Positions 44,898 to 48,220 of a DNA stretch of 64,000 nt are shown in pieces. A program made the position numbers and the translations under genes. This DNA is from a virus. The stretch lies in the UHGV virus genome UHGV-0348865. The stretch is one strand, 5' to 3'. The notes below the pieces were generated by a model, which saw nothing but the letters and a program-made list of their open reading frames with translations, did not search any database and had not been told where the DNA came from. Positions within the stretch are counted from its first letter, which is position 1; the number at the start of each line of letters is the position of its first letter.

Positions 44898-45045
44898 ACG
44901 TCTCGTGCATCTGCACGATTGGGTAATCCTTGAAAAATATTCTCTGAGGATTACCGATGATTGTGGCGGGACAAAGCACAAAGGTCTCCGCTATATCATG
45001 CAGTGTAAAGTGTGTGGTAGTATTACCTATCGTGACATTATTTAA
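44881..45045 (+). CDS. small Cys-containing protein (54 aa)
   Basis: Overlaps the upstream stop; CGG ... CKVCG pattern; below the track cutoff; coordinates approximate. Confidence 0.3.
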   Translation: MFKWFKRLVHLHDWVILEKYSLRITDDCGGTKHKGLRYIMQCKVCGSITYRDII

Positions 45046-45078
45046 ATAAATCTGCGCTCTTAGCTCAACGGAGGGGTT

Positions 45079-45507
45079 TTGAAGATAGAGTTAGAATACC
45101 CCTTCGTCAATGACTGGCGATTGGGTTACTTAAGAACAAGTAGAGATGGTAGGAAGCGTGTTGATTTGTACAACTCCGACACGGAAAGGACAACCATTTC
45201 TTACGCAAGATATTTAATGTCTTGTTATGTGGGTAGATACTTAACTTCAGAGGAAGAGGTTGATCATATTGATCAGGACTCAACCAATGATGAGATTTCC
45301 AACTTACAGATTCTAAGTATCAGTGAACATTTAGAGAAGACATTAAAACATAGGGTTAAGGGTGCAGTATCAATCTTGACTTGTGCCAACTGTGGTGTAC
45401 TTTTCGAACGGAGAGAAAATAAAATACACAAAAAGAATCAGAATTATTTTTGTAGCAGATCTTGCAACGGTAAGTATTACTGGAGCAATGGTTTCAATAA
45501 CAAATGA
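45079..45507 (+). CDS. HNH endonuclease (homing-endonuclease-like)
   Basis: HNH core EVDHIDQDSTNDEISNLQIL plus a C-terminal Cys cluster (CANCG ... CSRSC); immediately 5' of the tRNA-like element. Confidence 0.6.
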   Translation: MKIELEYPFVNDWRLGYLRTSRDGRKRVDLYNSDTERTTISYARYLMSCYVGRYLTSEEEVDHIDQDSTNDEISNLQILSISEHLEKTLKHRVKGAVSILTCANCGVLFERRENKIHKKNQNYFCSRSCNGKYYWSNGFNNK

Positions 45508-45518
45508 GAGTTCTTAAT

Positions 45519-45597
45519 GGGGGTGTACCTCACCCGTCTTCTAAACGGGCGTTAATCGAGTAATTGGAGTATGCAGGTTCGAGTCCTGTCTCCCCCT
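45519..45597 (+). ncRNA. tRNA-like element (non-canonical; anticodon-like hairpin with UCU plus T-arm)
   Basis: Hairpin CCCGT-CTTCTAA-ACGGG (7-nt loop, U33/A37-like positions, UCU centre); T-arm GCAGG-TTCGAGT-CCTGT; GGGGG...CCCCC closing helix. Spacing does not fit a standard cloverleaf. Confidence 0.3.
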
Positions 45598-45620
45598 CTA
45601 AGAACTCTTGGAGAATGTTT

Positions 45621-45944
45621 ATGTTTAAAAAAGTATTATTACTATGTACTCTCTCACTAAGCCCTCTGGTTATGTCAGCTGATTTGAATTTCCTAGATGG
45701 GTCTTCCTCTTATTTAAAAAGAGAGAGAGGTTTGGTTAACAGTAGAACTCCTGATGAGGGATATTTTGTTGGATATACAACCTCCACTACACGAAATATT
45801 GCTAATTGTAGCTCATCGGGAACCTTAAACAAAGTTGTGTGGGAGGTTGTTGCTTTATACATTGAACAGCATCCTGAGAGACGTCATCTAAGCAATGATG
45901 ATCTTATCATAGAGGCTGTAAACAACGCTTGGTGTAATAAATAA
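45621..45944 (+). CDS. secreted protein with cleavable signal peptide
   Basis: Start at the ATG after GGAGA; signal peptide MFKKVLLLCTLSLSPLVMSA followed by a polar mature domain. Confidence 0.55.
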   Translation: MFKKVLLLCTLSLSPLVMSADLNFLDGSSSYLKRERGLVNSRTPDEGYFVGYTTSTTRNIANCSSSGTLNKVVWEVVALYIEQHPERRHLSNDDLIIEAVNNAWCNK

Positions 45945-45960
45945 ACCATAGGAGGTGCTT

Positions 45961-46242
45961 ATGAGTTGGGGTGGTGTAATATCCTTAATCTGTATCTTCC
46001 TTGTCTGTGTGGCCCTTACAGGCTGCGTACAGAGCCGTCCTGATGGATGGTGTGCATTATCTGTTGAAGGTGTGTGCGTATCTCGTTGGCATAAGGGTGA
46101 GAAGGTTCCTTCTGGTGAAATTGATATGCGTTACAGTGGTATCTCATGCCTGAATGGTGCAGCAGTAGATGAGGAGACTAAAACCTTGTCAGATGCGCAG
46201 TGGTGTGGTGGCTCTGTAACAACAACCGGTAAGGAGTGGTAA
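45961..46242 (+). CDS. putative lipoprotein (lipobox LTGC), Cys-rich
   Basis: AGGAGG RBS; N-terminal hydrophobic segment ending in ALTGC; several further Cys in the mature part. Confidence 0.55.
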   Translation: MSWGGVISLICIFLVCVALTGCVQSRPDGWCALSVEGVCVSRWHKGEKVPSGEIDMRYSGISCLNGAAVDEETKTLSDAQWCGGSVTTTGKEW

Positions 46243-46243
46243 C

Positions 46244-46492
46244 ATGACAGCTCATTATTGGAATACAAAGAAGCTCCTTGAAGAGATGGCTGGAGTTAGT
46301 AAGTTCCAGTTAAATTCCATGCTTCGAATGGATGCTCGCTCTTTACGCTTCCAAGTAAAGATTGGTAACTTCAGCGATGGCCTTTACTACACACTGAAGG
46401 AAAGGATTAAGAAGACTCACTTCATCATATATGGACTCAAACCGAGAACATATGTTAACTACATGTATTGGGATACATGCTACGATAATTGA
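46244..46492 (+). CDS. hypothetical small protein
   Basis: 82-aa ORF; contains a CGCTCTTT copy. Confidence 0.4.
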   Translation: MTAHYWNTKKLLEEMAGVSKFQLNSMLRMDARSLRFQVKIGNFSDGLYYTLKERIKKTHFIIYGLKPRTYVNYMYWDTCYDN

Positions 46493-46499
46493 GGTTATT

Positions 46500-46721
46500 A
46501 TGAAACTAGACTCTAAGCAGTCACTTAAAACCGTTGAGCTGTCCACGCTGCCAAACGGAAGTATTTTTGGTCATGATAAACACTTCTGGATTAAAACAGA
46601 CATCATAAACGATGGATATATCACCTGTGTCAATCTTTGGAACGGCTCAGTGGATGGTTATCGCCCTAGCACAAAGGTGGTCCCTCAGCCTGATGCTAAG
46701 GCTGTAGGTTTAGTTTACTAA
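46500..46721 (+). CDS. small paralogous early protein family member
   Basis: Start at internal Met after GAGG; LPNGSIFGH ... CVNLWNGSV pattern. Confidence 0.5.
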   Translation: MKLDSKQSLKTVELSTLPNGSIFGHDKHFWIKTDIINDGYITCVNLWNGSVDGYRPSTKVVPQPDAKAVGLVY

Positions 46722-46730
46722 GGAGTTCAT

Positions 46731-46904
46731 ATGAGCTGTTATGGTGGCGGTGAAGTATACGATGACGATGATATGGAATCTAACGATACATGCCCTGATT
46801 GTGGGTGCGAAACATTTGATGGAGTGTCAGTATATCCTACCTGTAGTTATTCACCAGTGATCTGTAAAACATGTGGAGATCAACCTTGTGATGAGTCTTG
46901 TTAG
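46731..46904 (+). CDS. small acidic Cys-rich protein (57 aa)
   Basis: AAGGAG RBS; Cys pairs CPDCGC ... CKTCGDQPC; below the track cutoff. Confidence 0.4.
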   Translation: MSCYGGGEVYDDDDMESNDTCPDCGCETFDGVSVYPTCSYSPVICKTCGDQPCDESC

Positions 46905-47133
46905 TGTGTTAATAGCCTATCTGATAGGATCAGTAGTATCAGGTGTTCTGATTAAGATTATAGATGTTAAAGGAAATCAGTGTTTCCGAGATTGGGATGG
47001 TGAGCCAGACCTCGGAAAGATAGCAGCTATGGTTTTCTTGTGGCCTATTATTGCTGTACTATTTATAGCACTCGTAGCATGGGCTGCTCTTTGGGATTTC
47101 ATCCTTCCTAACAAAAAGTATGAGGACTCATGA
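46891..47133 (+). CDS. small membrane protein (two predicted TM segments)
   Basis: Hydrophobic stretches LVSVLIAYLIGSVVSGVLI and MVFLWPIIAVLFIALVAWAAL; start ambiguous (GTG 46873 or ATG 46891). Confidence 0.45.
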   Translation: MSLVSVLIAYLIGSVVSGVLIKIIDVKGNQCFRDWDGEPDLGKIAAMVFLWPIIAVLFIALVAWAALWDFILPNKKYEDS

Positions 47134-47734
47134 CTAAAGAATTTTTAGAGTGGTTTGGTGATACCTTCAAAGAGTATCTATTCTCTCCAGAAGACTTTGA
47201 AGAACTGAAAACCTACACTTGGTTGGCTTGGAGAGATAGCCGACGAGAGATGAATAAGTAATATCGTGAAGGATTCTTACGAGAGTCCTTTGAGATAGGA
47301 CTTCAGATCTCCTATCAAACTAACATTCATGTAACTAGCCCATAAGGGCGTTACCCTTTAATAACCCAGCCCACTAAGGGGGCGGGAGTTTAGTGCTGGA
47401 TTAGCATAACGCTTATTCCTACAAAGGCAACCGATTGTTAGATCTTACATGCAATATTAATTAATAGGATATGGGAGGGTTCGTCCCCTCCCCCTATTTA
47501 TAAATTATCAGGAGAGTGCATTAGCTGATTAGCTGTAGAAGGGAGGCCGATACTACAGTGTGGCCCAGAGCTAGTGTACTCTCCTGATGAGGCACCTCCT
47601 CATCGTGGTAAGCTGTGGAATGATCTTTACAGTAGTTACTTGAAGTAGCCTGTACGGCCCTCAGCAAAGAGTCCGGACGATATCTGAGTGACTTTAAAAA
47701 CAGATGGAGCCAGGTGGAATCCCTGGCAATTAAT

Positions 47735-47878
47735 TACAGGTATAGCTTATGTGACCCAGTAATGCAGAGTCTACGGTAAAGCAGTCGCCCGTGGTCGAAT
47801 GACCGTATGCCCATTGGATGCATTCCTTTGGTGATGGCTAGGGAGTCCGAGCGTAGGTTCGAATCCTACACCTGTAAT
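47735..47878 (+). ncRNA. structured RNA-like element with tRNA-type T-arm and 8-bp closing helix
   Basis: 3' end GTAGG-TTCGAAT-CCTAC immediately followed by ACCTGTAA, complementary to TTACAGGT about 140 nt upstream; too long for a plain tRNA. Confidence 0.3.
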
Positions 47879-47908
47879 CAAATTGAATAATATCTAATTG
47901 GAGGATGT

Positions 47909-48220
47909 ATGAAAGCACGAAGAACTATATGGACTCCGATGCAGATTGAAAATCTTCGGAGACTAATCAAAGAGTACTCGGTTCAAGAAGTTGCTCAGAT
48001 CATGAATGTAACGGAGAATGCCGTTAACACAGCTTGCACTAAGTTTGGTATATCAAGAGCTTCAATCCGAGTTAAGTGGTCTAAAGAAGAAGATCAGTTC
48101 CTTATCCGTAATGCTGGGTTCATGCCTATCCAGAGAATGGCTGACATGCTCGGTAGAAGTTATGCTGCTGTGCAGAACAGGGCATGTATGCACCTTAACA
48201 TTAGCCTAAAACTTAAATAG
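47909..48220 (+). CDS. DNA-binding protein with two HTH-like repeats
   Basis: Two internally repeated segments (WTPMQIENLRRL...VAQIMNVTENAV and WSKEEDQFLIRN...MADMLGRSYAAVQNR); GGAGGA RBS. Confidence 0.5.
   Translation: MKARRTIWTPMQIENLRRLIKEYSVQEVAQIMNVTENAVNTACTKFGISRASIRVKWSKEEDQFLIRNAGFMPIQRMADMLGRSYAAVQNRACMHLNISLKLK

Follow-up and report, generated by a model that had tools for sequence, protein, structure and literature searches.

The 64,000-nucleotide (nt) window analyzed here, from virus genome UHGV-0348865, contains at positions 47262-47908 a gap between protein genes that holds several structured RNA elements. Among them is a putative transfer RNA (tRNA)-like gene without an anticodon, here called module C. 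The window belongs to a Kuravirus (phiEco32-like, Gordonclarkvirinae), an Escherichia phage. In a BLAST search with 47100-48000, 203 GenBank phage records matched, most of them Escherichia Kuravirus phages, and the top phage match had 97.5% identity. The genes around the gap are all small plus-strand open reading frames (ORFs). The gap is flanked by a 43-amino-acid (aa) ORF and by a 103-aa helix-turn-helix (HTH) protein of the sigma-70 region-4 type. The counterpart genes in phage SU10 form the early block, coding sequences 69-125, which is read by host RNA polymerase from far-upstream sigma-70 promoters (PMC4281155). A signal scan found no plus-strand promoter-like site within the gap. No plus-strand ORF of at least 25 aa is present in 47262-47806. 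The ORFs of the gap are all short (26-48 aa), one on the plus strand (47807-47890, 27 aa) and the others on the minus strand, and none is conserved across the gap among the relatives compared.

Mosaic organization of the gap

The gap of five Kuraviruses was aligned, and modules were defined as blocks present or absent as units. In this alignment, the gap is a row of separate structured-RNA cassettes, A1, A2, B1, B2, and C, and not one RNA. In phiEco32, A1 stands alone and is followed by a protein gene. The SU10 gap contains A1 and A2 only, and that of rybdy3 contains A1, A2, and C without B. All five modules are present in the window and in the 1-6af and XT phages. Separate BLAST searches gave each module its own phage distribution. 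Kuravirus, Suseptimavirus, N4-like Gamaleyaviruses, and a Salmonella phage carry the A modules. For B, the 5' half matched jumbo phages, and the 3' half matched 139 records from a wide range of phage types. Module C was found in 13 phage records, including two Klebsiella N4-like phages. Gamaleyavirus VTCCBPA_322 carries A1-A2-B1-B2 colinear with the window, followed by two other tRNA-like units. In N4, HS106, PhAPEC7, UE-S5b, and PBECO4, homologous pieces lie within long ORF-free gaps that also hold ordinary tRNA genes. The cassettes recur in other orders and combinations in N4-like tRNA-array regions, other phages, and prophages.

A preliminary description of the region, made from the letters alone, had proposed, as one of two readings, a structured non-coding RNA with a tRNA-like 3' module in this stretch of about 650 nt. 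The independent distribution of the cassettes speaks against a single RNA. A non-coding, structured region with a genuine tRNA-like end module (acceptor stem, T-arm, discriminator A, and, in relatives, CCA) was borne out, and comparison with relatives revealed cassettes with compensatory changes in place of an ordinary conserved ORF. The whole gap folds more stably than shuffled sequences (z = -6.5, from 20 shuffles only), as do 47262-47600 (z = -5.4) and the 20-base-pair (bp) hairpin region of module A2 at 47505-47590 (z = -7.7), whose helix was also recovered as an inverted repeat in a repeat scan.

None of the modules had an Rfam match. Over 45000-48200, at the gathering threshold and at E ≤ 10, the gap was empty except for a 22-bit, chance-level 'Clostridiales-2' match. 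Even at E ≤ 10, nothing in the gap was found with the models for tRNA, transfer-messenger RNA (tmRNA), YrlA, mascRNA, Intron_gpI, GOLLD, and ROOL; the preliminary description had looked to such a scan for a tRNA, tmRNA, or group I intron match. No earlier description of these elements was found in the searchable literature, which covers part of published work.

Architecture of module C

The features of module C (Table 1) are placed on standard tRNA numbering. The T-arm is present as first reported, with GTAGG at 47853-57, TTCGAAT at 47858-64, and CCTAC at 47865-69. The 8-bp closing helix proposed with it is also present: ACCTGTAA (47870-77) is perfectly complementary to TTACAGGT (47734-41) and abuts the T-arm without a gap. 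The two strands are 128 nt apart, somewhat less than the estimate of about 140 nt. As in tRNA, a 7-bp acceptor stem is stacked on a 5-bp T stem with a 7-nt T loop (UUCRANY). The acceptor stem is followed by a three-nucleotide connector to the D stem, and the D loop still ends in ACGGUA, with a GG like G18-G19. A 5-bp stem with a 7-nt anticodon loop was not found in module C; the supported helices carry 9-, 4-, and 5-nt loops. The sequence in excess of a tRNA amounts to about 70-105 nt. By its sequence, module C looks tRNA-derived with insertions, having lost the anticodon loop and gained a D-loop hairpin.

The T-arm stem is invariant among the copies of module C, and its loop varies (UUCGAAC in HS106, UCCGAAC in XT18). 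In the window, discriminator A47877 is followed by UCA. Most relatives have CCA at this position, and six of the seven distinct copies (1-6af, XT18, rybdy3, HS106, and contigs L013 and L049) end in ACCTGTA-A-CCA.

A custom scan was run for a TTCRANN loop on a 5-bp stem and, after it, 7 nt with a complement 20-220 nt upstream. It found one site in the window against a mean of 0.085 per mononucleotide shuffle, and the motif occurred at least once in 16 of 200 such shuffles. By itself, the T-arm with its closing helix is only suggestive, and chance is not excluded by the motif. Module C was judged to be real because its closing helix and inner stems carry compensatory changes and because it fits exactly into the tRNA arrays of other phages.

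Table 1 Positions of the modules, of the elements of module C, and of related units. Positions are those of the window unless a locus handle (L) is given.
Feature	Position	Strand	Description
Module A1	47262-47506	+	Hairpins, variable middle, conserved single strand, terminal minihelix-like stem
Module A2	47507-47588	+	20-bp closing helix (47507-26/47569-88) around inner hairpin CUGUAG/CUACAG
Module B1	47589-47669	+	Hairpins GAUGAGG-CACCU-CCUCAUC and UACAG...CUGUA
Module B2	47670-47728	+	Predicted H-type pseudoknot and hairpin
Module C, putative anticodon-less tRNA-like RNA gene	47735-47880	+	About 142-146 nt; from sequence and comparison
C, acceptor stem	47735-41 with 47870-76	+	TACAGGT/ACCTGTA, 7 bp, U1-U7 with A66-A72
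C, D stem	GCUU 47745-48 with AAGC 47779-82	+	Encloses inserted hairpin 47752-72 and GG 47775-76
C, GAAU-tetraloop hairpin	47791-47806	+	Stands at the anticodon-arm position
C, further hairpin	47811-31	+	Followed by 21 unpaired-looking nt
C, T-arm	47853-47869	+	GUAGG-UUCGAAU-CCUAC, abuts 3' strand of acceptor stem
Downstream HTH-protein gene	47909-48220	+	Pfam: sigma-70 region-4 and HTH families only
124-nt unit TCCAGGA...	L176:1799-1926		U1:A72, ACCA end (custom scan)
62-nt unit TCCGGTG...CGCCGGA-ACCA	L005:1567-1632; L175:1972-2037		U1:A72 (custom scan)
93-nt unit	L044:2135-2227; L177:1809-1901		T-arm and closing helix
Tag-like frames	L044:1781-1813; L175:1700-1735; L041:895-936; L042:1627-1660; also L081, L089, L127

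Relatives and covariation of module C

In the Klebsiella N4-like phage HS106, the homologue of module C (L006:1501-1655) lies exactly between tRNA-Tyr (1414-1500) and tRNA-Ser (1656-1745). In the IMG/VR contig L013, the homologue likewise fills the slot between tRNA-Tyr and tRNA-Ser (HS106/L013 homologue, 94% identity). Both end in ...A-CCA-AAU, as the neighboring tRNAs do.

Across seven sequences, 98.8% of the cells in the proposed helices are paired; slid controls gave about 40%, with almost no double changes. Three pairs are changed on both sides, from G:C to A:U in the acceptor stem and from A:U to G:C in both the D-loop hairpin and the further hairpin. Module C was assigned to the plus strand because the G:U and U:G pairs of the tetraloop hairpin are possible on that strand only.

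A covariance model was built from the seven-sequence alignment and its structure. The model found a 120-nt sister type at eight N4-like loci (28-34 bits, E about 1e-5 to 1e-7); ordinary tRNAs scored at most 20 bits. The sister type occurs in N4-like coliphages, Gamaleyaviruses among them. It shares with module C the pair U1:A72, A73, (C/U)CA, a D stem with an inserted hairpin, and the stretch GCUAnnGAnUCCnAnCG before the T-arm. Its acceptor stem occurs as UACCAGU/ACUGGUA, UAUCAGU/ACUGAUA, and UACUGGU/ACCAGUA, and its D-loop hairpin covaries as well (GGCUUGA/UCAAGU versus GGCCUGG/UCAGGUC). For the two types together, 14 pairs are changed on both sides in a model-fitted alignment that leans toward the model, and the D stem is among the covarying helices. 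One sister copy, L182, is otherwise intact and also has UCA in place of CCA.

A pattern common to both types was found in five IMG/VR contigs, all N4-like in size, and had no match in 185,579 bacterial and archaeal species represented by one genome each. A 16-mer scan of viral contigs for module C gave mostly chance matches and one real match (L013), and a metagenome scan gave only copies identical or nearly identical to those of the window or 1-6af. The C family was found only in phage sequence. At the level of sequence, these comparisons establish the architecture of module C, its structural conservation, its strand, its cassette distribution, and its placement in tRNA slots.

The N4-like islands also contain other odd-sized tRNA-like units with a T-arm and a 7-bp closing helix, mostly with ACCA ends. 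The 124-, 62-, and 93-nt units (Table 1) were not called by tRNA finders. Nearly all tRNAs and tRNA-like units of the phage arrays (L005, L006, L013, L175, and L176; window 47877-47885) are followed by the spacer CCA-AAU(U). This common spacer might be a processing or recombination signal that aids cassette exchange.

Modules A1 and A2

Every Kuravirus and Suseptimavirus relative examined has module A1 at the same position, as does a Salmonella Grimontviridae phage, and the module is also present in N4-like Gamaleyaviruses. Its hairpins lie at 47268-47291 and 47294-47316, and its conserved single-stranded stretch is GUUAGAUCUUACAUGCAA. In hairpin 2, GAUAGGA/UCCUAUC is replaced by GAUAAGG/CCUUAUC in PhAPEC7, a double compensatory change. 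The GC-rich hairpin noticed earlier at about 47472-47492 reads as GGGAGGG (47473-79), loop TTCGTC (47480-85), and CCCTCCC (47486-92). It is extended by AAUAGG (47463-68) and CCUAUU (47493-98) to form the terminal stem, which scored as terminator-like in the signal scan. A 'tRNA-Arg plus intron' given by relaxed ARAGORN at 47388-47500 was rejected for its mismatched stems and its conflict with the covariation.

In module A2, both helices keep pairing through many changes in the aligned Suseptimavirus and Gamaleyavirus homologues, with variants such as CUGUAG/CUACAG, UUGUGAA/UUCACAA, and GUGGG/CCCAC. The module holds a possible GGCC-GGCC pseudoknot. It is homologous to the long-hairpin units 'CACAACAGG...CCGUUGUG' that adjoin B2 in many phages and prophages. 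A hammerhead at CUGAUGAG (47584-91) was considered and rejected: the rest of the hammerhead core is missing, and the stretch varies among relatives.

Modules B1 and B2

Among Kuraviruses, module B1 is confined to the window, 1-6af/FH3, and the XT phages. In the homologue of Gamaleyavirus VTCCBPA_322, the UACAG/CUGUA stem has an A:U to C:G change. Homologues also occur in PBECO4-type jumbo phages, within a unit of about 330 nt with its own promoter-like and terminator-like signals. The PBECO4 unit (L007:1270-1655, in the region 208,554-208,939) is ORF-free, has the B1 segment in common with the window, and had no Rfam match. Its signals are a strong sigma-70-like promoter, TTGACT-17-GATAAAAT, and an end that resembles a terminator.

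Module B2 was found in at least 120 IMG/VR contigs, from which 86 distinct variants were recovered, and in 139 GenBank phage records, 15 E. coli chromosomes, and three plasmids; overall, more than 200 sequences of phages, prophages, and phage-plasmids carry it, and these are of unrelated types. Phage phi80, whose M3 RNA is a known RNase P substrate, was not among the B2 matches listed. Loci besides the window include L005:1495-1562, L039-L042, L051, L052, and L053-L172. The consensus of about 60 nt is AGYCCAGACGAUAUCUGAGUGRCUUWAAAAACAGAUGGGAGCCGGUGGAAKCCCGGCA. In the predicted pseudoknot, stem S1 pairs AGUC (47670-73) with GACU (47690-93), stem S2 pairs AUCUG (47682-86) with CAGAU (47701-05), and an A-rich loop lies between. 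The hairpin GCCAGG-UGGAAUC-CCUGGC (47709-27) stands 3' of the pseudoknot. Across 45 distinct sequences, 98.1% of the cells are paired. S1 and the hairpin covary (five pairs, 32 cells changed on both sides), a level reached by none of 500 shuffles; S2 is nearly invariant. No Rfam match was obtained for B2. The settings of the module differ: it occurs in tRNA arrays, in another context between rdgC and a repressor gene, and in a third between a terminase gene and a portal-side gene. In some prophages, it lies inside a unit of at least 500 nt with promoter-like and terminator-like signals.

Neighboring and related elements

The gene at 47909-48220 begins 28 nt after the end of module C. Its homologues in relatives are labeled 'endonuclease' or 'D5-like transcriptional regulator', and a Pfam search found no nuclease domain in its protein.

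At a site that holds a normal tRNA-Arg in relatives, the window carries a tRNA-Arg(UCU)-like gene of non-canonical form (45519-45597, +). It scored 33 bits with the Rfam tRNA model and was not called by ARAGORN at default settings. Its D arm is replaced by 4 nt, and its variable region has a 20-nt insertion. Homologues with 85-90% identity are present, mostly unannotated, in more than 260 phage records from many families, among them Felixounavirus, rV5-like, jumbo, Klebsiella, and Salmonella phages. In Felixounavirus AYO145A, the gene lies within the tRNA cluster and has an ACCA end; covariation with the window copy is seen in the acceptor stem and in the anticodon stem.

Reading frames resembling tmRNA tags were observed in the related islands of PhAPEC7, UE-S5b, SEzh_1, and BU9 (Table 1). 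They are preceded by AUAAAU, begin with GCA AAC GA, and encode peptides such as ANDDVVLMAA*, ANDNVVLMAA*, ANEEAYLMVA*, and ANEEMYLAVA*. In unrelated phages, the same peptide is specified by codons that differ synonymously. These islands match the tmRNA_permuted and beta_tmRNA models weakly (17-27 bits against gathering thresholds of 47 and 84), and ARAGORN called no tmRNA in them.

Discussion

We infer that the RNA of module C is transcribed, processed, and stable, and that it may act as a decoy. In the proposed mechanism, host RNA polymerase would read through the island from early promoters, and RNase P would cut module C at U47734/U47735 (U-1/U+1). Trimming of the 3' end and the CCA-adding enzyme would then complete the molecule, with CCA either encoded or repaired. 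T4 tRNAs without an encoded CCA are processed by RNase P (PMC11143913). The product would be a stable tRNA-shaped RNA unable to decode, which could act as a mimic or decoy for a host factor that recognizes the acceptor/T/CCA half of tRNA. Module C keeps the 12-bp coaxial acceptor/T stack, the T loop, the D stem with GG, the discriminator A, and (C/U)CA. Retained in it is the tRNA half recognized by RNase P, EF-Tu, SmpB-like proteins, the CCA-adding enzyme, T-loop modifiers, and several tRNA-directed toxins, and dropped is the half that is read by the ribosome; mimic or decoy is therefore the most economical guess. An expressed and processed tRNA-like RNA gene within an island of cassettes is probable. 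The specific decoy role is tentative and, taken by itself, rather doubtful. For the whole statement, an island of cassettes in which C is an expressed, processed, tRNA-shaped decoy RNA, we see the chances as evenly balanced.

Several points weigh against this proposal. B and C are missing from most Kuraviruses and are therefore dispensable cassettes. Of the folding analysis suggested in the preliminary description, the whole gap stood out, and the tRNA-like part did not: module C by itself is not more stable than its shuffles (z = -1.2). The C-type sequences are 90-98% identical, and their covariation consists of few events. The window copy, like two identical metagenome contigs, has A-TCA and not CCA, and there are two mismatches in its D-loop hairpin; both could be signs of decay.

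On a rival view, B and C would be tRNA-array remnants recombined from an N4-like phage, and C would be a functionless tRNA pseudogene with insertions. The small number of records with C, its absence from most Kuraviruses, the UCA end and hairpin mismatches of the window copy, and the failure of ARAGORN and Rfam to recognize it all fit such a relic. We nevertheless regard it as unlikely: the changes are compensatory in four different helices, the special features are kept in two size classes across three phage groups, the unit moves with exact gene boundaries, and UCA is also found in the otherwise intact sister copy L182. A low probability, too, is given to the view that C is an RNase P signal that sets the 5' end or stability of the 47909-48220 messenger RNA (mRNA), the excised RNA being a by-product, as with plant mitochondrial t-elements and mascRNA. 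The short distance between C and the start codon of the sigma-70 region-4-like HTH gene suits this view, and both polycistronic mRNAs and tRNA-like structures are known substrates of RNase P (PMC11143913, PMC1920247). However, the units of HS106, L013, and the Gamaleyavirus sister type lie between tRNAs or RNA units with no adjacent mRNA, and SU10 and phiEco32 express the same downstream gene without C. Less probable still is a mimic of the tRNA-like domain of tmRNA that, by binding SmpB (or EF-Tu), would block host trans-translation or redirect it. In favor of such a mimic, the anticodon arm is missing, and the acceptor stem, T-arm, and ACCA are kept; tag-like frames with weak tmRNA-model matches occur in related islands, and a precedent has been proposed in mycobacteriophage DS6A (PMC4131195). 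Against it, pair 3:70 of module C is C47737:G47874, invariant in the family, where tmRNA has G3:U70, and C has a real D stem, unlike tmRNA. BLAST with E. coli ssrA against all RNA islands gave nothing meaningful, and neither the window nor most of the loci carrying B2 contain the tag module. Together, the relic, mRNA-punctuation, and tmRNA-domain explanations weigh about as much as the specific decoy idea.

The tmRNA reading of module C itself, raised in the preliminary description, did not hold: besides the 3:70 pair, neither ARAGORN nor Rfam called a tmRNA, no tag reading frame is conserved in C, and no tag-like motif is present in the window. The only GCA-initiated frame in C changes non-synonymously between relatives, partly at covarying stem positions. 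The other suggestion of that description, an interrupted tRNA, fares better as a statement of ancestry, tRNA-derived with insertions, than as one of a tRNA that can decode. With its threshold lowered to 80%, ARAGORN models C as a tRNA-Val(UAC) whose anticodon loop is interrupted by 49 nt, to be removed after transcription. This model was rejected for its mismatched stems and because it draws on alignment columns whose covariation is with different partners (26:42 and 90:96). At default settings, ARAGORN made no call in the gap, and the sister type is without such an anticodon stem. The extra sequence of C is shorter than a group I core of about 200 nt or more, no group I intron match was found, and we know of no bacterial mechanism for splicing a 49-nt insert that is not a group I intron. 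A functional interrupted tRNA is accordingly graded as very improbable. We think equally little of a DNA-level element (replication origin, packaging site, or protein-binding array) or of unannotated small genes. The long ORF-free gap has many inverted repeats, and 'hypothetical proteins' are annotated here in some relatives. A replication origin was rejected, however, for want of iterons, direct repeats, and a GC-skew switch; the G:U pairs fit one strand only, the units have CCA ends and lie among tRNAs, and the substitutions are pairwise-compensatory and not codon-patterned, with no conserved ORF.

The locus indicates that extra stable-type RNAs of tRNA clusters are not peculiar to T4. An anticodon-less, tRNA-shaped family moves as a cassette between unrelated virulent phages, alongside conserved structured RNAs that databases do not list. 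It is conceivable, and we put it forward with reserve, that enterobacterial phages of both the lytic and the temperate kind draw on a common pool of exchangeable RNA cassettes not yet catalogued, of which the gap is one sample. Together, these cassettes would make up an RNA toolkit that could act on the tRNA and ribosome-rescue machinery of the host or against tRNA-directed antiphage defenses. Such a pool would include the anticodon-less, CCA-ended, D-loop-expanded tRNA mimics (142 nt and 120 nt), B2, the A2-type long hairpins, and, in some phages, a tag-encoding module. Natural variants with and without the cassettes (SU10, rybdy3, 1-6af, and the phage of the window) make the function directly testable. 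If these RNAs are true decoys for tRNA-directed defenses or ribosome rescue, they would represent a new kind of RNA counter-defense. If they are not, annotators would still gain several RNA families at places now left blank or labeled 'hypothetical protein'.

Comparison with known RNAs

Module C resembles tRNA (RF00005) in its 7-bp acceptor stem on a 5-bp T stem, its UUCGAAU loop, its D stem with GG, the discriminator and CCA of its relatives, and its array placement with the same CCAAAU spacer. It differs in being about twice the size, in its D-loop hairpin insert, and in a tetraloop-capped stem in place of the 7-nt anticodon loop, and it is missed by the tRNA model and ARAGORN. GOLLD and ROOL often adjoin tRNA genes. 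They resemble the gap as large structured non-coding phage regions (PMC12286853); unlike them, the gap is a mosaic of separable cassettes and not one conserved large fold, and it has no Rfam match.

The ends of YrlA lie in its Ro-binding stem, not in an acceptor stem. Together with mascRNA/menRNA and plant mitochondrial t-elements, YrlA resembles module C as a non-decoding tRNA-like fold cut from a longer transcript. These RNAs come from different organisms and have different architectures; the ends of C form a tRNA acceptor stem and not a Ro/Rsr-binding stem, and the YrlA and mascRNA models had no match in the gap. Like the tRNA-like domain of tmRNA, module C has an acceptor/T/CCA half without an anticodon. 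Mycobacteriophage DS6A encodes a tmRNA relative that consists of the tRNA-like domain only and may titrate SmpB (PMC4131195); both this RNA and C are phage-encoded, and a decoy role is plausible. Unlike them, C has no G3:U70 pair, no tag frame, and no match to the models, and it has a D stem.

The extra stable RNAs of phage tRNA clusters, T4 species 1 and 2, have been known for fifty years. To our knowledge, the function of these RNAs, rnaC and rnaD, has never been found. Like module C, T4 rnaC (139 nt) is an RNA not of tRNA size in line with phage tRNA genes, and its T-arm, CCGGG-UUCGAAU-CCCGG, abuts a 3' strand whose pairing partner lies upstream. Unlike C, its closing helix is imperfect (internal), and the annotated RNA has no ACCA end; beyond the T-arm, there is no similarity in sequence or to the model (8.5 bits with the C covariance model). 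The T4 stable RNAs rnaC and rnaD appear to be the closest known analogue of module C, by a likeness of architecture and context and not by homology.

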